Source: a candidate division LCP-89 bacterium B3_LCP
GTDB taxonomy: Bacteria > Electryoneota > B3-LCP
Assembly: GCA_005223185.1 (NCBI GenBank)
Contig: NJBN01000007.1
Location: 1-64,000 of the forward strand
Direction of reading: 5' to 3'
Length of the DNA stretch: 64,000 nucleotides
Shown here: in pieces, positions 2,221-55,375 of the stretch
Position numbering within the stretch: position 1 is the stretch's first letter
Layout of the letters: every line of letters starts with the position of its first letter
The notes under the pieces: model-generated
Seen by the model: the letters and a program-made list of their open reading frames with translations, nothing else
What the model was told of the DNA's origin: nothing
Databases searched by the model: none
Position numbers and translations under genes: made by a program

Positions 2221-2409
2221 GTTGTCCTGGTTTTTTCCTGACAGCGTCAGGTCACATCCGTCGGCTGACGGACAGGACCTGACGCAACGGGAACTTTTTG
2301 AGCGTCCCACTTGAGTGGGACAGCATAAATTAGCCCGGAAATTTATTTCCGGGCGTTGTGAGGCTGTTTAGACAAATGATTCTCATTCTATCCGAAGGAG
2401 TCCTATGAA
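2221..2409. repeat. Mosaic palindromic repeat, copy 1 (modules A, B, C, D)
   Basis: Hairpins tccgtcggctgacgga (A), gcgtcccacttgagtgggacagc (B) and cccggaaatttatttccggg (C), then motif ccgaaggagtcctatg (D); the same modules recur at 14166, 19590, 34075 and 55240. Confidence 0.7.
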
Positions 2410-3216: not shown

Positions 3217-3957
3217 TCAGGAAAGTTCTTCTTTTAAAGCCTTCAATTCATCATCGGTGAGGTCCCTCCATTCACCCGCCTTCAGGTTTTTCAGTATTAA
3301 CCCGGACACGCTTACTCGGTGCAGTTTAGATACGTTAAGGTTTATCGTTTGCAGAGTCCTGCGTATCTGCCGCTTTTTTCCTTCAGTTAATATTACCTTT
3401 ATCTCATTGCTTCCCCGCAGTTCGATTTCCTTGAATTTGCTGGTCCCGTCATCAAGCTGAACTCCACTGCGAAGTTTTACCAGATGTGCCTCTTCGATTG
3501 CTTCATCTGTCTCTACCAGATACTCTTTTTCTTTCTGATAGGATGGGTGAGTCAATTTCTGGGCAAATTCACCATCATTGGTCAATAAAAGCAGCCCGGA
3601 AGTGTCCTTATCAAGTCTGCCAACTGGGAAGACTCTTTCAGGGACTTTCACCAGGTCCAGGATGATTTCCCCCTTTTCTCTGCCCGGGTTACAGGTGCAA
3701 AGCACGCCGGCAGGTTTGTTGAAGATTATGTAGCGTAAAATCTTCGGCGGGGAAACAAATTTCCCGCGTACTTTGACGCGGGAAATCTGTGAATCAATCC
3801 GTGTTTGGGGAGTCAGAACGATCTCCGAGTCAACTGTCACCCATCCGGCTTTGACATACTCCTCGCATTTCCTCCGGGAGGCAACACCGCAACGAGCCAG
3901 GTATTTGGCAATTTTCTCACCATCAGGCTGTTCGCTACGGTCGTCGGATCTTACCAA
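3217..3957 (-). CDS. rluB: Pseudouridine synthase, RsuA/RluB family, with S4 domain
   Basis: S4 motif KYLARCGVASRRKCEEYVKAG and catalytic motif GRLDKDTSGLLLLTNDG. Confidence 0.85.
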   Translation of the reverse strand: MVRSDDRSEQPDGEKIAKYLARCGVASRRKCEEYVKAGWVTVDSEIVLTPQTRIDSQISRVKVRGKFVSPPKILRYIIFNKPAGVLCTCNPGREKGEIILDLVKVPERVFPVGRLDKDTSGLLLLTNDGEFAQKLTHPSYQKEKEYLVETDEAIEEAHLVKLRSGVQLDDGTSKFKEIELRGSNEIKVILTEGKKRQIRRTLQTINLNVSKLHRVSVSGLILKNLKAGEWRDLTDDELKALKEELS

Positions 3958-4707
3958 CTACTTACCTTCCTGGTTCTTCATAAAAACCTGAAAGAGGTCT
4001 ATGGGAACCGGGAATACCACGGTGGAATTATTCTCTGACGCCACTTCTGACAGAGTCTGCAGGAACCTCAGTTGTAAAGCCATGGGGTGATCGCCTATTA
4101 TCGAAGCTGCTTCAGCCAACTTTGTGGAAGCCTGGAACTCACCCTCAGCGTGGATAACTTTGGCACGTCTCTCACGTTCCGCCTCGGCTTGTTTCGCCAT
4201 GGCGCGCTGCATTTCAGCAGGGAGATCCACATGTTTCACTTCCACTAAAGTCACCTTGATTCCCCAGGGGTCAGTATGAGCGTCCACTATTTCCTGCAAC
4301 GTCTTGTTGATCTTCTCCCTTGCAGATAGCAGATCATCGAGTTCGAATTGTCCCAGAACACTTCGCAGAGTCGTTTGTGCTAATTGACCTGTGGCGTACA
4401 GGTAATTTTCAACTTCCACGACAGCTTTGTTCGGTTCCATCACCCTGAAGTTGATAACTGCATTTACTTTGACTGAAACGTTGTCCTTGGTGATGATGTC
4501 CTGCGGGGGTACGTCCGTCACGATGGTTCTCAAGGAAATCTTACGCACACGATCGATGATGGGAATGATGATAATTAAGCCGGGACCTCTTGATCCTATC
4601 AACCTTCCCAATCGAAATATTACCGCACGTTCATATTCATTCAGCACCTTAATCGCTGAAATGAGCAGCAGCACTACCAAACCTATGAGTATAGCGAAAC
4701 CAGGCAT
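3958..4707 (-). CDS. SPFH/band-7 (stomatin-like) membrane protein
   Basis: N-terminal TM helix followed by an SPFH domain (VIFRLGRL ... coiled-coil [11 protein letters not shown]). Confidence 0.85.
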
Positions 4708-4746: not shown

Positions 4747-5043
4747 TTAAATGCGTTTATCGATAATCAACCATGCTCCCAGGACTATAAGCGCCGCTGG
4801 CAGAAATGGTACGTTTAGATTGAACCAATCGAAATATTCACCCAATAGTACAAAACCAGCTATGACCAACACTATTCCCCAGAAAGGGGTATCATGCTTC
4901 TTAGTCACTTTAGCTGTAAATTTAGGTCCACTGGAATTCAATGAGGATAACTTTCCTTCAATTTTATCAGACAGCTCCTTGAACCGCTCTTCAACTTTAC
5001 TGCTCAGCTCTTCCAGCTTTTTTTCTAGATCACCCATTGTCAC
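4747..5043 (-). CDS. Small membrane protein with N-terminal coiled-coil, unknown function
   Basis: 98 aa; charged helical N-terminus then two TM helices; sits between the NfeD and stomatin genes. Confidence 0.45.
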   Translation of the reverse strand: MTMGDLEKKLEELSSKVEERFKELSDKIEGKLSSLNSSGPKFTAKVTKKHDTPFWGIVLVIAGFVLLGEYFDWFNLNVPFLPAALIVLGAWLIIDKRI

Positions 5044-5098
5044 GATTATTCTCCACTTAATACAATGACAGAAAGCACTTCATCACTATGAGGCTGTA

Positions 5099-5416
5099 TC
5101 AGGATTTCTTCGCAGCCCGAGCGGCTTTGGCTTTAGCTACACGCCGTTTTCTGTACCATTCACGCTGATATTTCAGGCGAGCTTCCCTGTGAGTCTGGTA
5201 GTAGTTCTTTAGATAGGGACGCCTCTTCTTGTATTGTCGCCGCTGTTTCTTCAGCAACTCTTCACGGTTATCCCAATAGTAGTCCCTGGTGACGGCACGA
5301 TAGCATTCCTTACATCTGGAACGATAAACCATCGATCCAGTTGCGGTTTTCTGAGTGTAGAAATTTCGAACTGGCAGCGTCCTGCCACAGAGATTACAAA
5401 CTTTTTCCTTTTTCAT
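5099..5416 (-). CDS. Highly basic zinc-ribbon protein, putative nucleic-acid binding
   Basis: CNLC-x24-CKEC zinc ribbon followed by a Lys/Arg/Tyr-rich tail (RRQYKKRRPYLKNYY ... KRRVAKAKAARAAKKS). Confidence 0.5.
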   Translation of the reverse strand: MKKEKVCNLCGRTLPVRNFYTQKTATGSMVYRSRCKECYRAVTRDYYWDNREELLKKQRRQYKKRRPYLKNYYQTHREARLKYQREWYRKRRVAKAKAARAAKKS

Positions 5417-5469
5417 GATCGGTACCTTATGCGTTTATTTATATTGATGATCTTCGTTATACGCTTTTC

Positions 5470-6786
5470 TTATTCCTTGAATTCTTCGACAATTAATAAG
5501 TTTCTCTCAGCCTTCTGGACTCTAATCTGAGATCCTTTTGGCAATTTCCCGACAGTTGATTTTGCATTCCATATTTCCCCCCTGACTTTTACTTTCCCCA
5601 CAGGATCAAGTTTCTCGATCACCTCGCCGGTTTCTTCAATCATGCCCTCTAAACCTGTGGTGGGACGCCGCTTCTGTGCTTTTATCGAAAGGGAGATCGC
5701 CACGAGGAAGAAGAGGACTGTGCCGATAACCCCTGGCAGGATGACTCCCCAGGATATCTCCACACCCGGAATTGGTGATTCAATAAGCATAACTGATCCT
5801 AAGATGAGTGATATGGTTCCCCCGATGGCGAGAACTCCGTAACTGACCACTTTTATCTCCAGAAGAAAGAGAATGATTGCCAAAACTATAAGCAATAAGC
5901 CCGCGACATTTATAGGCAGAGTCTGAAAAGCGAAGAAGGCTAAAATTAAGCATATACCACCTATAACGCCCGGCACTACAGTTCCCGGGTTGTACAGTTC
6001 GAAGAATAACCCGTACATGCCCAGCATCATCAGCACGTAAGCGATGTTGGGATCGCTGATTACTTCCAAAAACTGATCGCGCCATGTCCGGGAAATTTCC
6101 TCTAAGACGACGCCTGTTAATTCCAGTTTGCGATTTCCCAGCGGGAGCGCCACTTCACGTCCGTCCAGCATCACCAATAAACTGTCAACTGATGGCGCTA
6201 TCACGTCAATTACGCCTAATTCCAACGCTTCCGTTTCCGTGATGGACGCCGATTCACGCACTGCGCTTTCCGCCCAGTCAGCATTTCTGCCCTGCTTTTC
6301 GGCAATGGAGCGAATAAAAGCCACAGCATCATTGAGGACCTTCTCTTCCATCACTCCAGTTGTGTCATCTTCCTGCCCCATCCCCAGTGATACAGGGTGA
6401 GCAGCACCGATGTTAGTTCCCGGTGCCATAGCCGCAACATGAGCAGAAAGCGTAATAAAAACTCCCGCTGAACCCGCACGGGATCCGGAAGGAGACACAT
6501 AGACGATAACAGGAACGTCACTTGCTAAGATTGATTTGATGATGTCCCGCATCGATTCCATCAAACCTCCGGGTGTATCCAGTTGAATCAGAAGCGCTTC
6601 AGCTTCGCTATCGTTCGCTTCATCGATAGCTCTCTGGATGAACCGGGAACTGGCAGGATGGATAACGCCGTCTATTTCGATGTATTTCACCTGCTTGGCG
6701 CTGACGTCCTGCATAAAGATAATAATGGCAGCGAATAACGCAAGTGAAGATAGTAACTTCCTGCTGATGTTGATCACCATCATCAA
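5470..6786 (-). CDS. NfeD-like membrane-bound ClpP-class serine protease, long form
   Basis: Signal peptide, ClpP-like domain (YIEIDGVIHP ... GSRAGSAGVFI), multi-TM region and a C-terminal OB-fold; classic partner of stomatin. Confidence 0.8.
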   Translation of the reverse strand: MMMVINISRKLLSSLALFAAIIIFMQDVSAKQVKYIEIDGVIHPASSRFIQRAIDEANDSEAEALLIQLDTPGGLMESMRDIIKSILASDVPVIVYVSPSGSRAGSAGVFITLSAHVAAMAPGTNIGAAHPVSLGMGQEDDTTGVMEEKVLNDAVAFIRSIAEKQGRNADWAESAVRESASITETEALELGVIDVIAPSVDSLLVMLDGREVALPLGNRKLELTGVVLEEISRTWRDQFLEVISDPNIAYVLMMLGMYGLFFELYNPGTVVPGVIGGICLILAFFAFQTLPINVAGLLLIVLAIILFLLEIKVVSYGVLAIGGTISLILGSVMLIESPIPGVEISWGVILPGVIGTVLFFLVAISLSIKAQKRRPTTGLEGMIEETGEVIEKLDPVGKVKVRGEIWNAKSTVGKLPKGSQIRVQKAERNLLIVEEFKE

Positions 6787-6874: not shown

Positions 6875-8281
6875 TTAATAAATACGCAATATCTGGCTTA
6901 TTGTGTGAGCAGTTTCGGCAATGTCCTCATCCATAACAGCCTTTACATCCAGAAATAGGTAATCCCGACGCACGTACCCGATTATCGGTAATTCGGCTGT
7001 GCGCAACTCAGCAGCCAATTTTGAAACGGGGATTCCTCTGACCTTAATCTTTAGGGCAGCCGAAGGAAATTCATGCAGAGGTAACGCTCCTGATCCCAAT
7101 TGTCCGGTTGATTCGGTCAACAGAATCCGTACTTTTTCTGACAATTCAACCTGAGAAATTAAATCATATAACTGTTTTGCACGCCTCATCGCTTCACTCT
7201 GATCTTCAGATAACCTTTTCAACACCGGGTGTCTGCTGATAAACTTGTCTGGTTCAAGATAAATTCTCAGGGTTTCTTCCAGCAATGCCAGCGTAAACTT
7301 ATCTGGACGCAGAGCACGCATCATAGGATTCTTGCAGATTTTCCCAATCGTACCCGAATCTCCTACCAAAATACCGCATTGCGGACCACCCAGTACCTTA
7401 TCTCCGCTGAAAGTGGCAACGTGCACTCCACTTTTAACGCTTTCCTGCACAACCGGTTCATGAGGTAAACCTGACTTCTCCAAATCAATCAAGACACCAC
7501 CACCCAGATCGTGAATAACGAAAACACCCCGCTCTCTACACGCGGGTGCAATTTCCTCAATTTCCGCTTCGTGCACAAAACCTTTCACTCTGTAGTTACT
7601 GGAATGAGCTACTAGCACCGCTCTGGTTTTCGGCGTTATCGCTTCTGTATAATCTTCCAAATAGGTCCTGTTCGTTGTCCCCACCTCTACAAGTTTGGTG
7701 CCTGATTTTCGCATTATTTCCGGCAGGCGAAAGGAGCCGCCAATTTCAATCAATTGGCCTCGTGAAACGATGGTCTCCTTGCGGTACGCCAGCGTGTTAA
7801 GTGATAGCATCACCGCAGCGGCGTTATTGTTTACAACTGCAGCAGCATCAGCCCCGGTTAAGAAAGTGATCAGGTCTTCTAAAACGCACTGTCTATCGCC
7901 GCGCTTTCCAGTGAGCATATCAAGTTCGAGCGAACAGGCAGCTTTTACTCTGTCGAAGGCACGCTGATAAATATCTTCAACGAGTGGCGCTCGCCCCAAC
8001 CCTGTATGAAGAATTATACCTGTAGCGTTTATCACCCGCTTCAGGCGTGGTTTTAAGAAGACAGCTACCCGATCCTGCACAGATTGCACAAATTCATCCA
8101 GCGAAGGTGGATCTTCTCCCCTATCAAGAATCGCCTCCCGTGCTGCCTTGATGACGTCATTGCAGCACTTCTTCACTAAATCGTGCGAATACTCTATCGA
8201 GAGGTTCTGTAATGCCTGTGTCTCTAAGAGGCTGCCAACTTGCGGCAAGAATTTTAGTTTTTCATGTTGTTTCTTGTTCAT
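6875..8281 (-). CDS. selA: L-seryl-tRNA(Sec) selenium transferase (selenocysteine synthase)
   Basis: Full-length match to the SelA architecture including ILHTGLGRAPL and a PLP-fold core. Confidence 0.85.
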   Translation of the reverse strand: MNKKQHEKLKFLPQVGSLLETQALQNLSIEYSHDLVKKCCNDVIKAAREAILDRGEDPPSLDEFVQSVQDRVAVFLKPRLKRVINATGIILHTGLGRAPLVEDIYQRAFDRVKAACSLELDMLTGKRGDRQCVLEDLITFLTGADAAAVVNNNAAAVMLSLNTLAYRKETIVSRGQLIEIGGSFRLPEIMRKSGTKLVEVGTTNRTYLEDYTEAITPKTRAVLVAHSSNYRVKGFVHEAEIEEIAPACRERGVFVIHDLGGGVLIDLEKSGLPHEPVVQESVKSGVHVATFSGDKVLGGPQCGILVGDSGTIGKICKNPMMRALRPDKFTLALLEETLRIYLEPDKFISRHPVLKRLSEDQSEAMRRAKQLYDLISQVELSEKVRILLTESTGQLGSGALPLHEFPSAALKIKVRGIPVSKLAAELRTAELPIIGYVRRDYLFLDVKAVMDEDIAETAHTISQILRIY

Positions 8282-14046: not shown

Positions 14047-14165
14047 ACCTGTATTGTAGTTACTTCATTAAAGAGTAAAAAGTGTTAATTGTTCCACCGA
14101 TTGTCAATAAATTCTCTTGCATTCTTTTTAAAGTTGATCTAAATTTGGTTTCGTAAAGATTATTC

Positions 14166-14430
14166 ACTATTTGGAGAGGTAGCGCGGGGGCTTGCTCCCG
14201 CCATGTAAATTCGTGCCGCTGACTCCCCGCAGTCAGCGGCTATAACAACCGCAGAGTACGGGGACTCTGCGGCACTGGAATAGCCTCTCACCGCCCGGAA
14301 ATGTCCGAAGGACTCCTATGGAGAATTTCCAGGCTAGTCTTATGCTGTCCCGCTAAAGCGGGACGCTTAAAAACCTTTACGTCCGTCAGATGACGGACAG
14401 AAATTGAATAGCCCGGGAATTCATTCCCGG
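14166..14430. repeat. Mosaic palindromic repeat, copy 2 (modules E, D, B, A, C), the most complete copy
   Basis: E hairpins gccgctgact-ccccgc-agtcagcggc and ccgcagagt-acgggg-actctgcgg; D ccgaaggactcctatggagaatttccaggct; B gtcccgctaaagcgggac; A gtccgtcagatgacggac; C cccgggaattcattcccggg. Confidence 0.75.
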
Positions 14431-14566
14431 GTAGGGGATTGGTAACAGAACCTTCAGTCCGGTACTGATTATCGGATGACTCGAGCCCAGGGTATGTTAC
14501 GAAATCACAAGGAGTAATCTAACCATCAACCTGAAAAACCTGAACAAAACCGAACTACAAGACCTG

Positions 14567-19589: not shown

Positions 19590-19750
19590 GGTATTTTCAT
19601 TAGTTATGCTGCCAACTCCCTGCAGTTGGCAGCACTGCCTCAGAATCAATTCTGAGGCTTAAACTGATTCAAGAACACTGAAGTGATCTTCTTAGCGTCC
19701 TACTTTAGTGGGACAGCATTTTTATAGCTCGGGAATTCATTCCCATGTCT
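19590..19750. repeat. Mosaic palindromic repeat, copy abutting the tmRNA 3' end (E-like hairpins, B, C)
   Basis: gctgccaactccctgcagttggcagc; gcctcagaatcaattctgaggc; gcgtcctactttagtgggacagc; cgggaattcattccc ends 8 nt from the tmRNA 3' terminus. Confidence 0.65.
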
Positions 19751-19757
19751 AACTTTG

Positions 19758-20114
19758 TGGAGACGGCGGGAATCGAACCCGCGTCCGAAATAGTGACCGA
19801 AGGACCCGCTACAGGCTTAGTCGCTGTTTAGTTCTCGCTAACCATCAAATCCAGCGACAGATCAGATGGGAAGCCAGCCTCGGAATTCTCACGTCAGGCA
19901 TTGAGGCGCTGCTTGACGCCAGCCCATCATTATGACGCCCGCATCCCAACTCGATGGGCAAGAATCGGGTCGGACGTAGCCGCTTCTTTATTAAGCAGCT
20001 AAGGCATAGCCGTGATTATCGGCATTTGTGATTGTGGCGGGTTTATACGGGGTCACGCCATCCCCGACCTGCTGATCCAGCTTCCTCCTATCCCGTCGAA
20101 ACCAAGTCGTCCCC
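19758..20114 (-). ncRNA. ssrA: tmRNA (SsrA)
   Basis: 5' GGGGACGACTTGGTTTCGACGGGAT and 3' GGTTCGATTCCCGCCGTCTCCAC(A); acceptor stem includes the G3-U pair; internal tag reading frame ...ADNHGYALAA then TAA TAA; about 357 nt. Confidence 0.9.
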
Positions 20115-20312: not shown

Positions 20313-21731
20313 ATGCACATTAGAAACAGAATGATCACAGTGATCATAGGTTGCTGCCTGTTATTGGCAGCGGGGATCCCGTTGCAGACAGGTTACGCTT
20401 ACACCCACACAGTTTTAGTGGAAGAAGCAACTGCTACCTGGTGCGGCTACTGCCCCAGTCATGTATCGGCTCTTGATGAGATGTACTCTTCGGGGCTCTA
20501 TGATTTCTACTATGTTACGCTTGTAACCGACATGAATACTTATGCTTACAATCGAGTTATCGGTGAATTAGGTGTAGGTGGCTATCCGACTTCTTTGGGC
20601 GACGGTGGATACCAGCAGGTCGTCGGTTGGGTACCGAACAGTTCATCCATGATCAACATGGTCAACAATTGTGGCAATCGTGCAGTCGCAGATATCGATC
20701 TTAATCTGGGCGTCACCTGGGATGGAAATGCACAGATCAGTATAGATCTCGATGTGATCAATAACGATCCATCCATGTACTTAGGACATCTGCACGCGTA
20801 TGTAACAGAAAAAGATTCCCGCTGGTACGTCTCAGGCAATCAGTATCACTTTGCCATGATCGGCGATTATGCCTTAAATGAAGATATCTTCGTTGCCGCA
20901 GGCGGCACTGCACAATATTCAACCACCTGGAACGGTAACACCTATGGATTCGGCGATATCGTTCCCGAAAATATCACAGTCATCGTTGCAGTGTTCAGTG
21001 GTGGAAATGTCTGGACAGATGAAACAGTAGCTATGCAGCCCGGTCTTCCGGTTGGCGACGTAACTGTTACTCTGACACCTTACGGCACACCTATCGTAAT
21101 TCCGGCTAACGGTGGTGCTTTCGATTTCAACATTGCGGTAACCAACAATGAAACTTCACCCTGGTCATTTGCAGTCTGGACGGACGTTACTCTGCCAAAC
21201 TCATCCATCTTCGGTCCCATTATCGGGCCGTTGACAATTACCATACCGGCAACAACCACCATCAATCGTGACCGTTCTCAGAGCATTCCTGGTGGAGCTC
21301 CTGCAGGTACTTATTCCTACAACGCCTATGTAGGCAACTACCCGGATGATATCTGGAACTCTGATACCTTCACTTTTGAAAAATCTACTGTTGGCGATGG
21401 GTCTGATTTCATTGGGGAATGGATAACTTCCGGTGATTCATTCACTACTGGAAATGTAGCATCTGTAGAAGATATTACTTTACTACAAAACTACCCCAAT
21501 CCCTTCAACCCAGAAACAACTATCAGCTACATCATACCGGAAGCAACTGATGTAAACCTCACTGTTTATGACGTAAGCGGTCGGCAGGTCGCAGAATTAG
21601 TTAGCGGCTACCGGAATGCCGGTCATCACGACGTAACCTGGGATGCTTCTTCCCTATCGGCTGGTGTTTACATATATCGTCTATCGGCTGGTGAGTTCAA
21701 CGCCAGTGGAAAGATGGTGCTTCTCAAGTAA
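20313..21731 (+). CDS. Secreted protein with N-terminal thioredoxin-like CxxC domain and T9SS C-terminal sorting domain
   Basis: Strong RBS aaaggag; signal peptide; EEATATWCGYCPSH motif; C-terminus QNYPNPFNPETTISY ... KMVLLK. Confidence 0.7.
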   Translation: MHIRNRMITVIIGCCLLLAAGIPLQTGYAYTHTVLVEEATATWCGYCPSHVSALDEMYSSGLYDFYYVTLVTDMNTYAYNRVIGELGVGGYPTSLGDGGYQQVVGWVPNSSSMINMVNNCGNRAVADIDLNLGVTWDGNAQISIDLDVINNDPSMYLGHLHAYVTEKDSRWYVSGNQYHFAMIGDYALNEDIFVAAGGTAQYSTTWNGNTYGFGDIVPENITVIVAVFSGGNVWTDETVAMQPGLPVGDVTVTLTPYGTPIVIPANGGAFDFNIAVTNNETSPWSFAVWTDVTLPNSSIFGPIIGPLTITIPATTTINRDRSQSIPGGAPAGTYSYNAYVGNYPDDIWNSDTFTFEKSTVGDGSDFIGEWITSGDSFTTGNVASVEDITLLQNYPNPFNPETTISYIIPEATDVNLTVYDVSGRQVAELVSGYRNAGHHDVTWDASSLSAGVYIYRLSAGEFNASGKMVLLK

Positions 21732-21926: not shown

Positions 21927-21958
21927 CCCGAAGGGACTCCCATGGAGTAATCCTATGG
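21927..21958. repeat. Solo D-module repeat (cccgaagggactcccatggag)
   Basis: Matches the ccgaaggactcctatgga module seen at 2391, 14303, 49628 (reverse) and 55240. Confidence 0.5.
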
Positions 21959-22310: not shown

Positions 22311-22376
22311 CTATCCCCTCCCCACCATCTCAATCGCTCCTTCCGGGAAGACGTCCACACAAACGCCGCAGCCGCG
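22311..22376 (-). pseudogene. Remnant of a 4Fe-4S ferredoxin-domain gene (3' tail only)
   Basis: Encodes RGCGVCVDVFPEGAIEMVGRG, paralogous to the C-terminus of 23152..23700 (CYGCGVCVDVCPEGAIDMVGR); differences are mostly synonymous apart from Cys-to-Phe and loss of the stop codon. Confidence 0.55.
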
Positions 22377-23118: not shown

Positions 23119-23151
23119 AAAAATATAACTACTTTATAAGAAGATCGTTTA

Positions 23152-23700
23152 TCACCGCCCCACCATATCAATCGCTCCTTCCGGGCAGACGTCAACGCAG
23201 ACACCGCAGCCGTAACATTCATCTGCAACAACCGTCAACTCTTCTCCATCCCACTCCCGCGCTTTGAAGAAACAGAATTCCTCACATTCGCCGCAATGCG
23301 TACACAATTCCTCATCTGTCCGTTCTATGTACACTCCTTTGTCACAGGGGCTGGGTACATCGTCCGTGAAGAAATCACAGCAGCAGTCACAGCAGAAACA
23401 TATACCTTCCGTAACTGTCTTGATGTCGTTATCTCTGAACGGCCGCGGCACCAGGTGAGTTTCTTCAGATTCCTTCAAAATCTTCAGCACTTCATCTTTG
23501 GATACCGGTCGCAAACCCGTTCCCGTTGCCGCCGTCTTCTCCTTAAACTGAAGGCATAGAAATATTCCCGATCTTTTGCAGGAGCCGCGTTCTTCCCGGC
23601 ATTCACAATTAGAAACCCAGTAAAGATCGTGTCCATCCACAATCTCACGTGCTTCAGCGATAGTGCATACAAAATGGAAGTTTGGCTCTGATGTGGACAT
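23152..23700 (-). CDS. Cysteine-rich Fe-S protein with a C-terminal 2x[4Fe-4S] ferredoxin domain
   Basis: CTHCGECEEFC and CYGCGVCVDVCP ferredoxin motifs plus N-terminal Cys clusters (NCECREERGSC, CFCCDCCCD); start set at MSTSEPN after RBS gaggaa. Confidence 0.65.
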   Translation of the reverse strand: MSTSEPNFHFVCTIAEAREIVDGHDLYWVSNCECREERGSCKRSGIFLCLQFKEKTAATGTGLRPVSKDEVLKILKESEETHLVPRPFRDNDIKTVTEGICFCCDCCCDFFTDDVPSPCDKGVYIERTDEELCTHCGECEEFCFFKAREWDGEELTVVADECYGCGVCVDVCPEGAIDMVGR

Positions 23701-28315: not shown

Positions 28316-31276
28316 ATGAACATAAAACATCCTAAAGTTCAAATGAACATGACATGTTTCATTTGGATTCTTATAGCCCTATTCACAGTTCTAACCCGAC
28401 CTACGGACGCACAGCCGTCGATCGGTCTTGATGCTATCGAAGCGATAGATGAATTGCCTCTCTACATACAGGGGATAACTGCTGACCAGGTCTCCAGCTC
28501 GGATCAAACCGGCGGAAACAGCGACCGCAGTGGTTACCTCTACCAGAATGATTCGTTGTACGTCATTTTCGATAAAGAAGGACCGGGGTGTATTTACCGG
28601 ATGTGGGTTCGCGGCACTACTACTTCTGCAAACCGAAGGATGGTCTTCTATTTCGATGGTGAAGAAGAACCGACCATAGATGCTACCGTGCAACAGCTTT
28701 TTTCAGGGCTATACAGCCCAATGTTAGAACCTCTGGCTGGCGGGATCAATGTTTCCGAGGGTGGAAACTACTGTTATTATCCGATAAAATATGCAGAACA
28801 TTTAAAGGTCGCATTTATAGATGACGTCGAACCTCACCAGATCTGTTACAAAACCTACCCATCAGCAACAGCTTTGACGTCGTACGATCCTGCCGAATTG
28901 CCCACCAACGTTTTATCGCAGTGGCAGAATACAGGTACAGATCCTAAAGACCCAACCGGTAATAATTATTCCAACGGTTCGCTGACAGTTGGGATCAGTT
29001 CAACTGAGACTATATTTACCTATTCCGGCAGCGGCAGCATAACCGGCATTCATTTCACACCTTCGCCTTTAACTTCCAGCATGCTGGGAAGCCTCAGGCT
29101 GCGTTTTTATTGGGACGACAGTATCGATCCACAGGTGGAATGTAGCTTTGGAAGCTTCTTCGGAAATTCATTGAGTACTTCTAATGTTGACGGTCTGTTA
29201 GTCGGTGTCACCGGCGACGTTTATTACTGCTACTTTCCCATGCCTTTCTGGGATAACGCCCACCTTGACGTATATAATTCTTCCCTGAATCAAGCTGTCG
29301 ATATAGATTATGAGATCTCCTACAAGGCGGATATTCCTCCAGAAGACCATGGTTACTTTACCGCCAAGCTGCTTGAATTCACACAATCTGTTCCCGGGCA
29401 GGATATGTTGTTTGGCGAACTGTTCGGTCATGGTAATTTTGTAGGTATGGTCGTTACAATCAGCTCTTCACAATGGCCGGATTTTTTAGGCGGTGATATG
29501 CGCATCTACCTGGATGGTCAAGCCAGTCCTTTTTTCCAGGGCACCGATTTTGACGGTGATTTCAACGCAGGAGATTATTTCGCTTCAGGGATCTTCTCGC
29601 TGCCCATTCACGGAGCACCAGCTATACAAACTGGTTTTGAAAGAAAGATATGCACCTATCGCTTCATGCTTGGTGATCTGATACCGTACGGCAACTCCAT
29701 TCGCATTCTGGCTGAACACGGTCATGATAATCTGGAATTGATAGAATATGCAGCTACGATTTATTCCTATAACCACAGCGAAGTCGCGCTAATTCTGTCC
29801 GATCATCTGGACGTGGGCGACCCGGCAGAAGAAGCGACACACAGTTATGTTAACCAGGGAACAGTTTCGCAGGAAACGCATTACTACGCCTACCCCGGCA
29901 CCTACGATGATGAGTACTTCAGTGATACTGGATATATTATAGAAGGCGCCGCATCCTTCACCGCAACCATAGATCCTTATAATGAAGGCGTTCGCTTGGT
30001 GCGCAGGAGAGATGCTCTTCATTTCCCGCAATATGCGCAGGTTATAGTAAACGGCGATACTGTCGGCACCTGGTGGGATATGGAGAATAACTACTACAAA
30101 CGTTGGGCTCTATCTTCATTTGAAATACCGCCACAATATACACAGTCCCTTTCTGAGATTGACATTTCTATAGCCTCCGGCGATAGCGCTGACTGGACGG
30201 AATATTTCTACTGGATTTATTCGCATATTCCACCCCGAGAAGACCTGCTACCACCGAATCAGGTAACAAGCGTATCCATCGAGGCACTGGAAAATGGATC
30301 GGAGCTATTCCTGCAGTGGGATATCCCCTTTGATAATTCCGGCGTCTCCGGATATAGAATATATAGGGACGTTACCACCGGAGTACAAGCAACTGAAGAA
30401 TTCTTAGTCGGGCAAACGGTGATGACGACATACACTGACACCGGCTTGATACCTGGAACCCAGTATTTCTACTTAGTGAGCGCTGTTGATTACAGCAGCA
30501 ATGAAGGTGAAGCTTCAGTTATCACAACTCAGATTACCGCAATAAATTTTATTTACGAGGCAGAAGAAATTGAGAGATTCTTGGGGAATTCCGGTGATCC
30601 TTACATTGTCGAAAACATGATGCAATACGGTGAAAACTGGAGTAATCAGCATCAATTGCTCTACTATTCTAACAATGTGGGTGATTACTTCAACATTCCC
30701 ATAGAAGCAGCTACGGCTGACACCTATCTCATCTCAGGCTATTGCACTATGGGATCGTTCTACGGTAATTTCAGACTGTGGGTAAATGAGGAACAAGTCA
30801 GCGACTACATATACCTTTACGACCCAAATACCATACGAAGTCCGCTGATTGAATTCGGATCGCACTATCTTGAAGAAGGTGAAAATGAATTCTCCTTCCA
30901 GGTTACCGGAAAAAACGTTGCCAGCACTGATTATTGCATCGGAGTTGACAACTTATTGATCACGCCATATTCGCTATTATCCGTGCCACCCTCTGCGCCG
31001 AACTCAACTCCTAATGAGTTCGGATTATCGCAGAATTTCCCCAACCCATTCAACGCCAGTACCCGCATCGCCTTCACTCTGCCCGTAGCAGGAAAAGTTC
31101 GCTTGACTATCTATGATATAGGAGGCCGTCTGGTAAGCAGGCTTCTGGATGGACGATTAACAGCAGGACAACAGAACATCACCTGGAATGCACAGGATTT
31201 TGCTTCTGGTATATACTTTGTCAGGTTAGAACAAGAAAGCAGAAAAACCACGCGTAAGATGGTGCTGATGAAATAG
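28316..31276 (+). CDS. Large secreted multidomain protein (beta-sandwich glycosidase-like domain, FN3 domain) with T9SS C-terminal sorting domain
   Basis: Signal peptide; FN3-like segment PPNQVTSVS ... SGYRIYRD; C-terminus QNFPNPFNASTRIAF ... KMVLMK; assignment of the N-terminal domain is tentative. Confidence 0.7.
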   Translation: MNIKHPKVQMNMTCFIWILIALFTVLTRPTDAQPSIGLDAIEAIDELPLYIQGITADQVSSSDQTGGNSDRSGYLYQNDSLYVIFDKEGPGCIYRMWVRGTTTSANRRMVFYFDGEEEPTIDATVQQLFSGLYSPMLEPLAGGINVSEGGNYCYYPIKYAEHLKVAFIDDVEPHQICYKTYPSATALTSYDPAELPTNVLSQWQNTGTDPKDPTGNNYSNGSLTVGISSTETIFTYSGSGSITGIHFTPSPLTSSMLGSLRLRFYWDDSIDPQVECSFGSFFGNSLSTSNVDGLLVGVTGDVYYCYFPMPFWDNAHLDVYNSSLNQAVDIDYEISYKADIPPEDHGYFTAKLLEFTQSVPGQDMLFGELFGHGNFVGMVVTISSSQWPDFLGGDMRIYLDGQASPFFQGTDFDGDFNAGDYFASGIFSLPIHGAPAIQTGFERKICTYRFMLGDLIPYGNSIRILAEHGHDNLELIEYAATIYSYNHSEVALILSDHLDVGDPAEEATHSYVNQGTVSQETHYYAYPGTYDDEYFSDTGYIIEGAASFTATIDPYNEGVRLVRRRDALHFPQYAQVIVNGDTVGTWWDMENNYYKRWALSSFEIPPQYTQSLSEIDISIASGDSADWTEYFYWIYSHIPPREDLLPPNQVTSVSIEALENGSELFLQWDIPFDNSGVSGYRIYRDVTTGVQATEEFLVGQTVMTTYTDTGLIPGTQYFYLVSAVDYSSNEGEASVITTQITAINFIYEAEEIERFLGNSGDPYIVENMMQYGENWSNQHQLLYYSNNVGDYFNIPIEAATADTYLISGYCTMGSFYGNFRLWVNEEQVSDYIYLYDPNTIRSPLIEFGSHYLEEGENEFSFQVTGKNVASTDYCIGVDNLLITPYSLLSVPPSAPNSTPNEFGLSQNFPNPFNASTRIAFTLPVAGKVRLTIYDIGGRLVSRLLDGRLTAGQQNITWNAQDFASGIYFVRLEQESRKTTRKMVLMK

Positions 31277-33854: not shown

Positions 33855-33935
33855 CGTTTTTTGTGCTGCTGACTCCCTGTAGTCAGTAGCTAATATCGCA
33901 GCCGAGTGCAGGGACTCTACGGCACGGATAGTAAC
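33855..33935. repeat. E-module repeat (two hairpins with complementary loops)
   Basis: gctgctgact-ccctgt-agtcagtagc and ccgagt-gcaggg-actctacgg; paralog of 14216..14282. Confidence 0.6.
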
Positions 33936-34074: not shown

Positions 34075-34192
34075 GATTGTAAGGGTAAACAGATTTTTAC
34101 GGAGCAGTCCGTCGGCTGACGGACGAAAACTCATTAAGCGTCCCACTTCAGTGGGACAGCATTAATTAGCGAGGAAATTCATTTCCTCGCGG
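34075..34192. repeat. Mosaic palindromic repeat, copy 3 (modules A, B, C)
   Basis: gtccgtcggctgacggac; gcgtcccacttcagtgggacagc; cgaggaaattcatttcctcg. Confidence 0.7.
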
Positions 34193-34216
34193 TATAAGAT
34201 TACTATAATCTACACC

Positions 34217-47000: not shown

Positions 47001-47718
47001 TCCCTATGAGGATGAAATTACAGGAATAATCGCTCCTATGTGGCTTGATTTATGGAATCCCACATCAGAAACCGGGAAGATATGCAGTTATTACGATGAT
47101 GTTAATGGAAAGCTCTACATAGAATATAACGGTGTCTCAAATGACTTCTCGCCCATCTTCAAGGAAACGTTCCAGATTGTACTCTTCGACCCAACAGAAC
47201 AACCAACCCTGACCGGCGATAGTGAATTCATGTTCTACTATCGAAGTCTATCCATCTTTGGCCTTCAGTACTGTTCTGTTGGTCTAGAGAGTCCAGATCA
47301 AAACATTGGCATCGAGTACTCATATGGTATGACTTTCGCATTCACAGTAAATGGGATTGAAGACAGCTTAGCCATCAAGTGGACCACCGATCCACCACCC
47401 AGTTTCCTGTACGTACCACCGCTACCTGATCCCGGAACGGTGATGCAGATACCTGATGAGTTCACCTTCGCAGAGCCTTACCCCAATCCGTTCAATCCAA
47501 CAACAATGCTGAGGTTCGCTATTCCGGTTGCAGGAAAGGTGGAACTGGAGATATTCAACGTCAGGGGACAGCGCGTAGCAGAACTTTACAGCGGTAAAGT
47601 AAACGCTGGCTGGCACCGCTTCGAATTTGACGGATCAAACCTGGGATCCGGAATCTACTTCGCCCGTTTAATTTATCAGGATCAACCCACGGTGCATAAA
47701 TTACTCCTGGTCAAGTAA
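44080..47718 (+). CDS. Peptidase C25 (gingipain-like) family protein with T9SS C-terminal sorting domain
   Basis: C25 catalytic-domain pattern (DFVLLAGDETVLP ... YVNHRGAGWSFGW ... TGIGCGVGLF); C-terminus PYPNPFNPTTMLRF ... KLLLVK; 1212 aa. Confidence 0.75.
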   Translation: MCIPRMTFLHIVVAVVTCSFLTSVSNALVPIPKEMVEMRISGNPANGSIIHLDFAEYWQSAGEITGDEALSFWVTLPDLGQPSAKVRVFTSDGILHTISECAQIGEPAIIRGVRVASVTIHPVIQGDSGSEAVEEMDIMISASGTGINEVYQDRRSQAFDGIISSFVVNPPGVNATDDFEQEHMLIICPDFAQEIITPFAEWKRRKGLEVTLSTLTEIGITADDFEGMKDYIQEAYDTWLNPPDFVLLAGDETVLPVRADWTDDPHTMFSTASVPGTYLDDNYFACVDGSDFFPDIILARWPLPNEGYSYAYVSAKTMRYEMAPTLDQTDWYQHSAVTAQGPLYDPTNLTQRETKLYTKDLMLNFGFAEVDTLFDPYSPDQLVQWVNDGLSYVNHRGAGWSFGWAGNNFYIDHVLELQNSFMLPVVTGIGCGVGLFGDPGICFGEAWMWVVGTMTNHRGAIAFIGPGWNTHTFYNDSLDIGLYESIFVESEPRIGASLIDSKLFMYDAFDDYIPLDPDIEEILRVAFNQYYLFSDPELKPYNNVPAGLQTAETIPVALGQGSFSLTFTIQDGAGLPFEGAQVCLYHPEDFQSVDLTDANGEVELDWDTNTESSFVYFTVTAHNHAPIVDSIAVIGDQAYVLHYDFELDDSMGGNGDGGISPGESADWIETVRNWGLNDASEVNAILTSLSPTAIVIQNSSYFGDIPAEATMMGTPNFVISVDPENYTVGDSLEFQIDVSDALDSCWTSYVDVPLVTPILSYIYAAPDIYTNGLIDRGETCEMFIGVYNNGFVDIDDAVLELHTDDPYIEIIDGTIDIGPFNAGSMYLSYYASPQDSFIVSASLYAPMYYEAEFWMKISSEQATYFYEDSVSFVLPIGQIFEGDPTFDSLETYFGYESLDTLYEECPTYEWFEIDPDSGGPGYVLPFSYETQTLKIELPFTFTYWGEDFDSLTVSADGWIMPGVTSAVAPDYQHFPYEDEITGIIAPMWLDLWNPTSETGKICSYYDDVNGKLYIEYNGVSNDFSPIFKETFQIVLFDPTEQPTLTGDSEFMFYYRSLSIFGLQYCSVGLESPDQNIGIEYSYGMTFAFTVNGIEDSLAIKWTTDPPPSFLYVPPLPDPGTVMQIPDEFTFAEPYPNPFNPTTMLRFAIPVAGKVELEIFNVRGQRVAELYSGKVNAGWHRFEFDGSNLGSGIYFARLIYQDQPTVHKLLLVK

Positions 47719-49561: not shown

Positions 49562-49627
49562 CTGAATAGTTGATCGAATAGGTCAATCAAAAAGGGGGCT
49601 GTCCCAAAAATCGACTAGTCATCCTGT

Positions 49628-49740
49628 CCATAGGACTCCTTCGGAGAGCTCGCTGAAAGCGAAGCGAAGAATCTCTTGTTCTTCTGTGAATCCCGTAGTC
49701 GGGGTCGCCTGCGACCATGGTGTCCCTGACCCCGACGAGA
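49628..49740. repeat. Composite repeat: D module (reverse) plus F element with left inverted repeat
   Basis: ccataggactccttcgg; gcgaagcgaagaatctc; core ccgtagtcggggtcgcctgcgaccatggtgtccctgaccccgac. Confidence 0.7.
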
Positions 49741-53699: not shown

Positions 53700-55004
53700 T
53701 TATGACGTCCTATTCTCGTGAATCCAGGTCAATATTTTTATTTCCCCATCAGTCAATTCCTTCTGGCGGCGCCTCATCACGGATCGAGCGGTCTCCAGAG
53801 TTGGTTTTAAGGGATACTTAGTGAGTTTTTCCGCGCCGCCCCAGTTGAATGAAGGCACGTAACGAGGCGGAAAACCGGCTCCGAATATCATGCTTCCCAC
53901 ACCCATTACAGTTCCTGTATTGAAGACAGACCCGATGGCGCTCTTGGAATGATCCCCCATCATCAAACCAACGAAAAGCTGTCCGGTATCCACTAACTTA
54001 GATCCTACCTGAACTTTGACGGGAGTATAATTGTTTTTAAGGTTGGACGTTTCCGTTCCCGACCCCAAATTGCACCAGGATCCTATATACGAATGCCCTA
54101 AAAAGCCACCGTGCTGTTTGTTGGAATAATCCTGTATTATCGAAACCGACACTTCGCCGCCCATGCGGCTCTGTTCGCCGAAGCAGCTACCCCTGATGTG
54201 CGACAGCGGTTTCACCTGAGATCCTGCACCTAAATACACGGGACCTTCTATAATTGAGTTATAACCAATGATGACTCCTTCATCCGCTACAATCGGCCCG
54301 TTTGAGGCGTCAAGCACCACGCCGGACATTATATCTGATCCATCAGCTAAATAGATGTCTTCTTCGGAAACCAGCGATGCATTCTTATGAACATTTCCGT
54401 CTAATTGCCCCAGCGAGCGCAATTCACGAGCTTCAATATCGATCTGCTCGTTCATTGCACCGATGGCCTCCCAGATGTAGGTTACCAAAACACCAATATT
54501 GGTCAGCGCTTCCGTAGTCGGGGTCGCCTGCACGCCTGGTGTCCCTGACCCAGACAGTTTCACTGCCTCTATTGAATTAAACTCATGCAGATCAAGTGCC
54601 GTTCCTGCTTCCCATCCTGAAGGTGGATTACCACAGAAAGCGATAACTCTACCGTCAGAAACTAACGCATCACCTGGCGCGAGATCGAGAACACGCTTGA
54701 AATTCACACCCGGTATCAAACAGCCGTTAATCCATAGCAGATCTATTCCTTTTTCAGGAGAAGGCTTCGCACCGGGATAATTCCCGGAAAGATACGGCCT
54801 GGTAAAATGATACTCTGCCGCCTGTGGAAAATACGCCAGTATTTTTTCCCGCAGAGTACGAATACCACAACGCAAATCCCATACCGGCCGTGTCAATGAT
54901 AGCGGCTCGGTGGTTATGGCAGCTTGATCTTCAAATAAGACGATAGCTCCAGGTGATTTCACCAAAGTTGATCCTTGAATTGTATATGATCGTGTAATTG
55001 TCAT
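53700..55004 (-). CDS. Putative sugar nucleotidyltransferase-like protein with C-terminal left-handed beta-helix (hexapeptide repeats)
   Basis: N-terminus AIVLFEDQ ... LTRPVWDLRCGIRTLREK; C-terminal hexapeptide repeats; carries an in-frame copy of the F repeat core (SGSGTPGVQATPTT); first ATG used (track ORF starts at TTG 55016). Confidence 0.7.
   Translation of the reverse strand: MTITRSYTIQGSTLVKSPGAIVLFEDQAAITTEPLSLTRPVWDLRCGIRTLREKILAYFPQAAEYHFTRPYLSGNYPGAKPSPEKGIDLLWINGCLIPGVNFKRVLDLAPGDALVSDGRVIAFCGNPPSGWEAGTALDLHEFNSIEAVKLSGSGTPGVQATPTTEALTNIGVLVTYIWEAIGAMNEQIDIEARELRSLGQLDGNVHKNASLVSEEDIYLADGSDIMSGVVLDASNGPIVADEGVIIGYNSIIEGPVYLGAGSQVKPLSHIRGSCFGEQSRMGGEVSVSIIQDYSNKQHGGFLGHSYIGSWCNLGSGTETSNLKNNYTPVKVQVGSKLVDTGQLFVGLMMGDHSKSAIGSVFNTGTVMGVGSMIFGAGFPPRYVPSFNWGGAEKLTKYPLKPTLETARSVMRRRQKELTDGEIKILTWIHENRTS
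54512..54555. repeat. F repeat core inserted in-frame within a CDS
   Basis: ccgtagtcggggtcgcctgcacgcctggtgtccctgacccagac; about 90% identical to the intergenic cores at 49693..49736 and 55054..55097. Confidence 0.65.
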
Positions 55005-55028
55005 TCTGAGCCCCAATTTATTGGGGTG

Positions 55029-55372
55029 AAGAATCTCTTTCTATCACGCGAATCCCGTAGTCGGGGTCGCCTGCGCCTATGGTGCCCCTGACCCCGATAT
55101 GAGACTCTTCGCTTCGCTCAGAGTGACACTCTCTGCATATACTCATATTGCCCTTTTTTTCAAGGGGGAGTAAGAGGGATAAGAATAATCCCCTAAAAAC
55201 CAACCACTACGAATAATATGAAAGACACCGCCCGAAAATGTCCGATGGACTCCTATGGAAAATTTCCAGGCTAATTTTATGCTGTCCCGCAAAGCGGGAC
55301 GAAAATAACTTGGAGCGTTCTACTTCAGTAGGACTGCATTGCATTAGTCCGGGAATTTATTCCCGGATGACA
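55029..55372. repeat. Composite repeat: F element with terminal inverted repeats (MITE-like) plus D, B and C modules
   Basis: gaagaatctc ... core ccgtagtcggggtcgcctgcgcctatggtgcccctgaccccgat ... gagactcttcgcttcgc; then tccgatggactcctatggaaaatttccaggct, gtcccgcaaagcgggac, tccgggaatttattcccgga. Confidence 0.7.
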
Positions 55373-55375
55373 CCC

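Follow-up and report, generated by a model that had tools for sequence, protein, structure and literature searches.

Hairpin repeats of a candidate division LCP-89 bacterium are probably REP-type elements with Y1 transposase-like partners

The first 64,000 nucleotides of contig NJBN01000007.1 from the candidate division LCP-89 bacterium B3_LCP (the whole stretch analyzed here, hereafter called the window) carry a set of short hairpin-forming repeats, among them a block at positions 14166-14440 upstream of rlmN. We put the probability at about 80% that these repeats are elements of the repetitive extragenic palindrome (REP) or bacterial interspersed mosaic element (BIME) type, comprising at least two REP systems that partner Y1 (HUH) transposase-like genes elsewhere in the genome. 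System 1 would consist of a two-hairpin unit, the B-C doublet, and an IS200-like protein of ~145 amino acids with the motifs of transposase subclass 1.2. System 2 would be represented by module F, a GTAG-footed REP of the kind that goes with canonical REP-associated tyrosine transposases (RAYTs).

An earlier note, written from the sequence alone, had described six hairpin modules (A to F) at nine loci of the window and suggested a REP/BIME-like or miniature inverted-repeat transposable element (MITE)-like family, possibly selfish. By reading the nine loci and scanning them with mismatches allowed, we found all of the listed modules where they had been placed. The module B pattern occurs at four sites in the window, the TAGC-plus-C pattern at four and a 20-mer of module F at three, compared with 0.00 expected for each in dinucleotide-preserving shuffles. 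The earlier note had made the existence of a family depend on copies beyond these loci. When the module B pattern was scanned through 185,579 representative genomes, 14 loci with 20 matches came from one other genome, the LCP-89 metagenome-assembled genome (MAG) Meg19_1012_Bin_459, hereafter the sister MAG. All 20 matches are followed ~13 nt later by TAGC and hairpin C, and at least 24 doublets are present in 112 kb of this MAG.

Folding and covariance modeling, both proposed in the earlier note, point the same way. The focal stretch 14166-14440 folds more stably than its shuffles, with z-scores of -7.2 (+ strand) and -8.2 (- strand). A covariance model, R1, built from LCP-89 doublets plus three from loci L101 and L102 (both of which also carry a Y1 homologue), recovered five full B-C doublets on the + strand of the window at 62-78 bits, together with three inverted doublets on the - strand (56, 42, and 33 bits) that abut three of the full ones. 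The window therefore holds eight doublets in total, in addition to copies of modules E and F and of a further palindrome, G. REPIN-like (REP doublet forming hairpins) inverted pairs are formed at 14291-14372(-)/14373-14439(+), 55227-55308(-)/55309-55375(+), and 19630-19697(-)/19689-19755(+), as well as by the E pairs. The elements of the window are the following, with loci of other genomes numbered L.

2244-2287 (+): long palindrome G (GCGTCAGGTC...GACCTGACGC) enclosing hairpin A (2256-2273); fold -18.6 kcal/mol; 92% identical over 48 nt to L011 2320-2367, sister MAG.
2296-2361 (+): B-C doublet, with B at 2304-2321 and the TAGC foot and C at 2331-2353; R1 78.3 bits, E = 3.5e-20.
2392-2409 (+): D-core fragment (CCGAAGGAGTCCTATGAA); mismatch-tolerant scan and sister-MAG comparison.
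14184-14201 (+): small G+C hairpin (GCGGGGGCTTGCTCCCGC), also in the sister MAG (matches L011 2526-2549).
14213-14275 (+): module E, a REPIN-like pair of same-type hairpins in inverted orientation; 22/28 matches; fold -22.4 kcal/mol.
14291-14372 (-): inverted doublet, with C' carrying a 22-nt loop insertion (module D, 14293-14335) and B' at 14347-14364; R1 56.1 bits over the full length; 91% identical to 55226-55293.
14373-14439 (+): doublet with an A-type hairpin (14381-14398) in the B slot and TAGC-C at 14409-14431; R1 62.5 bits; C gives a sub-threshold RF01687 match.
19607-19634 (+): single E-type hairpin; sequence, scan and fold.
19630-19697 (-): degenerate inverted doublet; R1 32.9 bits, E = 2e-7.
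19689-19755 (+): B-C doublet adjoining the 3' end of the transfer-messenger RNA (tmRNA), with the C hairpin ending at 19747; R1 71.8 bits.
21927-21958 (+): weak D-core-like sequence, the least certain part; four mismatches to the D pattern and a weak fold.
33864-33925 (+): module E, second inverted pair, more diverged; sequence, scan and fold.
34107-34124 (+): hairpin A (B'-type without a C' partner); sequence and scan.
34132-34197 (+): B-C doublet ~25 nt upstream of the start of a uvrA-like open reading frame (ORF) at 34217, with a compensatory C stem (CGAGG/CCTCG); R1 75.7 bits and alignment A2.
49627-49650 (-): D-core in reverse orientation; scan and sister-MAG comparison.
49693-49735 (+): module F, GTAG-footed REP (GTAG + TCGGGGTC ... 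GACCCCGA); sequence, repeat match, 20-mer count and fold.
54512-54554 (+): module F copy within ORF 53700-55016 (- strand), translated in frame; 19-aa insertion relative to homologue P0121.
55055-55097 (+): module F, third copy; sequence, repeat match, 20-mer count and fold.
55100-55128 (+): further hairpin module (TTCGCTTCGCTCAGAGTGACACTCTCTGC); 100% identical over 29-30 nt to L057 4959-4988, sister MAG.
55227-55308 (-): inverted doublet, with C' carrying the D insertion (55229-55272) and B' at 55275-55291; R1 41.7 bits.
55309-55375 (+): B-C doublet with a compensatory B stem (GTTCTAC/GTAGGAC); R1 72.6 bits and alignment A2.

All of these copies are intergenic except the module F copy at 54512-54554, which lies inside ORF 53700-55016; the statement that no gene call covers the repeats thus holds for every copy but that one. 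In the Rfam search of the window, one family alone reached its gathering score, namely the tmRNA (19755-20114, - strand). The modules were absent from the Rfam calls, indicating that they are not pieces of known RNA genes. Searching the window by tblastn identified no encoded Y1 transposase, in keeping with the earlier report of none.

The core unit is the doublet B-(~13 nt)-TAGC-C, found singly or as inverted pairs of the form [C'-B'][B-C]. It comprises the 7-bp hairpin B (GTCCYAC-N4-GTRGGAC), an A-rich linker of ~13 nt, a TAGC foot, and the 9-bp hairpin C. In an alignment of 28 B-C doublets (A2), on which the covariation counts are based, the foot reads [A/T]TAGC, with T37, A38, G39, and C40 conserved at 90-100%. 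Both stems are supported, as 96% of the stem cells are paired. Seven stem pairs are changed on both sides, compared with 1.9 in shuffles (none of 500 reached seven) and two at most in slid controls. On the strand with the 5' TAG foot we counted ~15-19 G·T wobbles versus 4 A·C mismatches, an asymmetry that fits a strand-specific folded substrate; an RNA role would bias the counts likewise.

The remaining modules can be described in relation to this unit. Module D is an inverted C hairpin with a loop insertion of ~22 nt, whereas module A and the hairpin next to D (H1) are B-position hairpins with a different middle, the A type filling the B slot at 14381. Module E comprises two hairpins of a third type in inverted orientation to each other. 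Its loops had been read as complementary, and indeed look so, because the two hairpins are inverted copies of one another: 22 of 28 positions agree when hairpin 1 is compared with the reverse complement of hairpin 2. Module F has the canonical form of a REP, with GTAG immediately at the base of its 8-bp stem. Three more hairpin families, E, G, and the D-core, accompany the doublets and F, as in the BIMEs of Escherichia coli. The claim that the modules recur in varying combinations and orders holds for the recurrence but not for free shuffling, as the order is fairly fixed: [inverted C with loop insertion, D]-[B', which is A or H1]-[B]-[C]. In the sister MAG (L057 769-857), a C hairpin holds a reverse-oriented D-core in its loop at the same position as the module D insertion, and a separate small hairpin element may insert preferentially into the C loop.

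When the neighborhood upstream of each sister-MAG doublet was listed, locus L088 proved to contain a Y1 transposase-family gene (PF01797 Y1_Tnp, E = 4e-31). This gene has a D-H1-B-C unit on one side and an inverted B-C doublet on the other. Using the frameshift-repaired L088 protein as a query, we obtained 975 relatives. A homologue with 58% identity (L102) has two inverted doublets upstream and two direct ones downstream, and the homologue in a Zixibacteria locus (L101) has an inverted C and a small hairpin upstream and a B-C doublet plus two more C hairpins downstream. Two of the relatives belong to B3_LCP itself: P0001, the best match of all at 77% identity, and P0008, the eighth at 58%. 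Both are encoded on contigs other than that of the window; the search beyond the window for a RAYT or IS200-type gene that the earlier note had suggested thus yielded two IS200-like Y1/HUH proteins. We consider the Y1 gene to be of low copy number because the homologue clusters have, with few exceptions, one member on one contig.

To extend the comparison, 28 Y1 homologues were aligned (A1), and a metagenome scan with this alignment returned 80 loci. Most of those with enough flanking sequence show, inverted on both sides of the gene, the arrangement [short G+C hairpin]-[~10 nt]-TAGCC-[hairpin], often with a second short hairpin. A crude regular expression for this bipartite signature under-counted it and mainly revealed a difference in orientation, and it was replaced by Rfam and R1 searches. 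These observations establish a pairing of the B-C doublets with a Y1 gene in relatives of B3_LCP, and the bracketing of Y1/HUH genes, together with the canonical GTAG form of module F, supports a family of the REP/BIME or MITE kind.

The Rfam searches connected the doublets to a known family. Hairpin C at 14399-14431(-) is the best window match to Acido-Lenti-1 (RF01687), obtained by a permissive scan run on the focal stretch (26.2 bits, E = 5e-4), and the best score in the sister MAG is 28.7 bits. Among the first 40 of the 80 metagenome loci, RF01687 gave 37 matches at its gathering score (37-55 bits) spread over 19 loci, and no other Rfam family was found there. The copies usually lie within ~150 nt of the Y1 gene, on the - strand upstream and on the + strand downstream. 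R1 finds the Rfam-called sites at full length on the opposite strand (20-37 bits, E down to 8e-8). Because RF01687 and R1 detect the same sites, we consider the B-C doublet to be a divergent Acido-Lenti-1 motif in reverse complement. On the opposite strand, RF01687 has the same plan as the doublet, with a hairpin of 8-9 bp, CUA, a linker of ~12 nt, and a short G+C hairpin; the window copies differ in their 7-bp B hairpin with a 4-nt loop and in the GGAAT/ATTCC stem of C. Acido-Lenti-1 was described as a probable non-coding RNA of Acidobacteria and Lentisphaerae, rated on covariation and in some cases close to group II introns (Weinberg et al. 2010, PMC2864571); neither the paper nor its supplement mentions a link to a transposase. 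Rfam files the family as "Gene; sRNA" of unknown function.

This classification raises the alternative that the doublets are genes for small structured RNAs (sRNAs), present in multiple copies and acting in trans or in cis, and that their association with Y1 genes is incidental or regulatory. The stems do covary, and the wobbles compatible with G·U pairing cluster on one strand. Weinberg et al. also relied on covariation in judging the motif to be a probable RNA (PMC2864571), and two window copies are sense-oriented in what are probably the 5' leaders of rlmN and uvrA. A protein-bound DNA hairpin would covary equally, however, and Rfam models the strand opposite to that favored by the wobble counts. 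The orientation to neighboring genes is inconsistent, with copies lying between convergent, divergent, and co-directional genes; the copies form abutting inverted pairs and inverted brackets around a transposase-family gene, and they co-occur with canonical GTAG REPs. We therefore regard the sRNA explanation as unlikely, even though it is the strongest of the alternatives.

The partner protein has 145-150 amino acids or so, the motifs DHVH, WQEGYGAF, and YIxNQxEHH, and a conserved tail. In A1, residues H55, H57, W95, Q96, Y99, Y115, Q119, and H123 are invariant, and the lengths range from 140 to 162 aa. Scores of 86.6, 86.0, and 82.3 bits were obtained with the NCBIfam model NF033573 for IS200/IS605 transposases, which has a cut-off of 55 bits. 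Judged by published motifs, the partner proteins have the features of TnpA_Y1 subclass 1.2, namely DH[IV]H, WQ, Y---Q--HH, the length, the tail, and the low copy number. According to Quentin et al. (2018), this subclass is close to IS200, lacks the properties of an insertion sequence (IS), has no REPs tabulated, and occurs mostly in Cyanobacteria and Bacteroidetes (PMC6006769). The likeness extends to the signature of DH[IV]H, WQ, and YIKNQKEHH, ~148 aa, and ~30 conserved C-terminal residues, whereas our proteins differ in coming from LCP-89, Zixibacteria, and varied metagenomes and in being bracketed by repeats. Bertels et al. (2017) described a "RAYT-like IS200 Group 3" without duplicates and with abundant flanking 16-mers (PMC5581495), which may be the same group.

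Given this affiliation, the repeats could instead be the ends and internally deleted derivatives of an active IS200/IS605 element, similar to palindrome-associated transposable elements (PATEs) or MITEs, rather than parts of a domesticated REP/RAYT system. That the protein scores as an NCBIfam IS200/IS605 equivalog, that its subclass is the Y1 subclass nearest to IS200 (PMC6006769), and that the L088 copy is frameshifted, as is common in decaying IS copies, would all be expected of such an element. Nearly all homologue clusters are nevertheless limited to one member on one contig, and the two B3_LCP paralogues are diverged (77 and 58% identical to the L088 protein) and hence not recent copies. 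The flanks are inverted copies of one unit and not distinct left and right ends on one strand. No tnpB lies beside the L101 and L102 copies, which stand among housekeeping genes, and no ORF of 50 aa or more suggesting tnpB lies beside L088. An active IS is, in our judgment, still less probable than an sRNA.

Module F points to the second system. In the sister MAG, L016 encodes a canonical RAYT at 5027-5554 on the - strand, which scores 102 bits with NF047646 (cut-off 80) and has inverted GTAG-GGGTCGG...CCGACCC REPs on its flanks (4955-4990 and 5495-5580); F-type GTAG REPs are present in the same genome (L052). These sequences suggest that module F is partnered by a canonical RAYT. Another sister-MAG locus, L057, ends within a third Y1-family gene, of which it contains the start (7833-8000; MPQKIYSNIYFHVIWRTKN...GGIED), with TAG-footed hairpins that include the D-core just upstream (7690-7815). 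The mosaic of modules would be explained if there were several Y1 genes and each had a repeat family of its own.

The intragenic F copy at 54512-54554 encodes an in-frame insertion of 19 aa (IEAVKLSGSGTPGVQATPT, residues ~154-172) that is lacking in the closest homologue, P0121 (60% identical), and it sits where homologues vary in length. The host ORF (53700-55016) codes for a nucleotidyltransferase/hexapeptide-repeat protein. REPs inside genes have been reported before (PMC3733652, PMC6006769). Near the third F copy, the module at 55100-55128 is 100% identical to L057 4959-4988, although the shared domains and paralogues of the two genomes are only ~25-48% identical, which suggests either strong constraint or recent exchange.

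The block upstream of rlmN was compared with the orthologous site of related genomes. The gene order S49-DUF58-MoxR-RlmN is kept in three relatives (RlmN 68-70% identical), in which the spacer between MoxR and RlmN measures 13, 127, and 152 nt and contains no R1 match; the spacer of the window measures ~480-520 nt. The rlmN start and a conserved upstream motif (~14091-14121) enclose the extra DNA of the window. The repeat block therefore has no counterpart at the orthologous site in these relatives, as judged by a between-species comparison at one locus. No region orthologous to the window was present among the pattern-fetched loci of the sister MAG. On plain reading of the sequence we noticed no direct duplications at the borders of the units, of the kind that a classical MITE (a DDE transposon derivative with terminal inverted repeats) has as target-site duplications, although no systematic test was made.

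The motif, TGTTCCRCC..TTGTCAAT..TCTCTTG, occurs upstream of rlmN in four genomes (window 14091-14121; L185 3905-3945; L184 3925-3965; L183 3960-3995) and probably serves as a promoter or operator; the window has the repeat block between this motif and rlmN. The 5' leader of rlmN probably contains block 14166-14439, and that of uvrA block 34107-34197; secondary RNA roles of the repeats are possible. The RlmN of the window, which shares 100% identity with the B3_LCP protein P0271, is annotated from an ATG at 14567 (326 aa), whereas the orthologues have 342-371 aa and align with in-frame upstream codons (...INLKNLNKTELQDL). Between the stop at 14477 and position 14567 there is no in-frame ATG, GTG, or TTG; AAGGAG at 14509-14514 is followed by ATC at 14525. 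Either this RlmN uses a non-canonical start or its N terminus is truncated next to the repeat block.

A third alternative is that the repeats are host regulatory or structural elements (terminators, mRNA stabilizers, nucleoid or gyrase sites) spread by recombination and without a present transposase role. In its favor, secondary roles of this sort are known for E. coli REPs (PMC2817692, PMC3733652), hairpins of very high stability stand at gene ends and in leaders, and some modules are kept between genomes that share only 45-70% identity in their proteins (e.g. a 30-nt stretch at 100% identity). However, the hairpins are not followed by U-tracts, and they are placed inconsistently with respect to genes. 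This alternative would also leave unexplained why inverted copies bracket Y1 genes across phyla, and roles of this kind are compatible with REP-type elements rather than exclusive of them. We regard it as very improbable.

For the preferred reading, REP/BIME-type elements with Y1 partners, a mechanism can be proposed by analogy with IS608 TnpA and the E. coli TnpA-REP (as summarized in PMC6006769). In this mechanism, the hairpin folded from single-stranded DNA would serve as the binding site of the Y1 protein, guided by the TAG-containing foot next to hairpin C, and the protein would cut and rejoin single-stranded DNA, thereby spreading doublets and inverted pairs. An inverted doublet pair corresponds to the arrangement around the partner gene minus the gene, hence its REPIN-like appearance. 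From these analogies we infer that the Y1 protein mobilizes the doublets.

Several observations weigh against REP-type elements or against the pairing. The bracketing of the Y1 gene by doublets was read in relatives, the source genome B3_LCP contributing the presence of the genes, and the bracketed L088 gene has one apparent 1-nt frameshift (3948-3990), so that a pseudogene or an assembly error is possible. The geometry is not uniform, as the doublets face outward in L102 and L101, both ways in L088, and inward in loci of the Acidobacteria type. The foot of System 1 is [A/T]TAGC, so that the B-C doublet lacks the GT[AG]G expected of a REP and present as GTAG in module F. NCBIfam places the partner protein among the IS200/IS605 transposases (L088, 86.6 bits), whereas the scores with the RAYT model NF047646 REP_Tyr_transpos remained below its cut-off of 80 (29.7 bits for L088, 29.9 for P0001, and 21.1 for P0008), and subclass 1.2 is tabulated as having no REPs (PMC6006769). 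The window copies stay under the RF01687 gathering score (26.2 versus 37 bits). Finally, the copies share descent, and the covariation and wobble counts consequently overstate the number of independent events.

Compared with the known combination of REP, BIME, or REPIN with a RAYT, the "REPtron" of E. coli and Pseudomonas (PMC2817692, PMC3116915, PMC3333891, PMC6006769), the repeats described here have much in common. They are short multi-copy intergenic palindromes, frequently in inverted pairs, that form mosaic clusters with other motifs. A low-copy Y1/HUH gene is bracketed by inverted repeat copies, a short conserved 5' foot is present, copies occasionally lie in frame within genes, and both REP families and Y1 genes number more than one per genome. 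Module F is an ordinary GTAG REP in these terms, whereas System 1 departs from the pattern. Its unit is two hairpins at a fixed spacing instead of one, with the foot [A/T]TAGC in place of GT[AG]G; its protein has the class 1 (IS200-like) Y---Q--HH and not the class 2 Y---NP, scoring under the NCBIfam RAYT cut-off; and its repeat core is recognizable across several phyla, whereas classical REPs are usually lineage-specific. IS200/IS605 elements (IS608, ISDra2) and PATEs resemble the present system in having an enzyme of the Y1/HUH family and subterminal DNA hairpins that carry a guide sequence at their foot, and they are the source of the proposed mechanism; the differences are that multiple identical gene copies, distinct left and right ends, and tnpB are absent here and that the repeats vastly outnumber the gene.

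A more far-reaching interpretation is that the Acido-Lenti-1 "sRNA" and the subclass 1.2 Y1 proteins are two halves of one ancient cross-phylum REP system with a two-hairpin, TAG-footed DNA substrate. We hold it tentatively, at somewhat less than an even chance. In such a system the core, which would match the motif known from Acidobacteria and Lentisphaerae, may have stayed recognizable in LCP-89, Zixibacteria, and diverse unassigned metagenome contigs, though classical REPs turn over quickly. If true, it would represent a domestication of an IS200-type transposase that is independent of, or earlier than, the classical RAYTs.

REP/RAYT systems are the best-studied bacterial case of a single-copy transposase kept with hundreds of tiny non-autonomous repeats, and nearly all that is known of them was learned from Proteobacteria and class 2 RAYTs. 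This kind of system is already known; within the literature searched, the pairing of a two-hairpin, TAG-footed (Acido-Lenti-1-like) repeat with a subclass 1.2 Y1 protein and the presence of such a system in LCP-89 appear to be new. If the link holds, a "repeat-less" Y1 subclass gains a cognate repeat, a substrate that can be tested with oligonucleotides; an Rfam family of unknown function would be reread as a REP at the DNA level, possibly with secondary RNA roles; and REP biology would reach candidate phyla of the Fibrobacteres-Chlorobi-Bacteroidetes (FCB) group. The repeats inflate intergenic DNA, occupy 5' leaders (probably those of rlmN and uvrA), and can enter genes in frame, which matters for the annotation and assembly of MAGs.

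Related hairpins were also noticed outside these lineages. Loci of Anaerolineales SMBSF12 (L004, L005, L009, L027, L059, L064, L066, and L080) and of JBARSJ01 contain a different, Chloroflexi repeat family with an identical B hairpin (GTCCCACTTCAGTGGGAC), followed after ~12 nt by a TAGCCCGCG-hairpin (TAGCCCG hairpin). The Anaerolineales repeats gave no Rfam match, and no Y1 gene was found in the locus pieces searched; the Anaerolineales and JBARSJ01 repeats may be a further branch of the same REP type. In Povalibacter uvarum (L021-L023, L030, L034, L038, L041, L090, and L097), the B hairpin lies within a longer gammaproteobacterial repeat (TGTGG-GTCCCAC..GTGGGAC...GTCCGGCTGAAGCCGGAC-CCACA) that adjoins REPs of the CGTC-1 type (cgtcattcccgcgaaagcgggaatcca). 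CGTC-tagged REPs (Di Nocera 2013) reportedly have a CGTC tag, an 8-9-bp stem starting with A·T pairs, and a CCA tail. The window hairpins do not fit this description, whereas the Povalibacter repeats (cgtcattcccgcgaaagcgggaatcca) fit it but are another family.

Other candidate interpretations were considered and set aside. A replication-strand bias was suggested by the location of all five full doublets and of all F and E copies on the + strand and by a seemingly uniform orientation in some contigs of the MAG, but it was dropped because the three inverted partners are on the - strand and both orientations occur in L052 and L088; the GC skew of 8-kb pieces was too noisy for a test. A tiny ORF in module D, AAGGAC(N4)ATG encoding MENFQA* at 14318 and 55255, is not conserved in the sister MAG, where one copy has ACG for ATG and the other peptides differ. 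The hammerhead-like CUGANGA...GAAA around hairpin A has an unfit geometry and no Rfam match. An attC site, a CRISPR array, and a terminator were rejected for lack of R'/R'' cores, of regular spacing, and of U-tracts, respectively.

The 3' ends of tmRNA genes are frequent integration sites for mobile DNA. At the tmRNA of the window (19755/19757-20114, - strand), the R1 match reaches the 3' end, and the C hairpin stops ~8 nt short of it (19747 versus 19755). The window also encodes flagellin, a MoxR ATPase, RlmN, and several proteins with sorting tails of the type IX secretion system (T9SS). A direct repeat at 21492-21545, 31037-31090, and 47479-47532 lies outside the hairpin family and codes for the T9SS C-terminal sorting domain (YPNPFNP...) of three secreted proteins. 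A 63-nt stretch shared at 87% identity by 22312-22374 and 23150-23212 lies in two neighboring - strand ORFs, which are probably paralogous genes with a conserved end.

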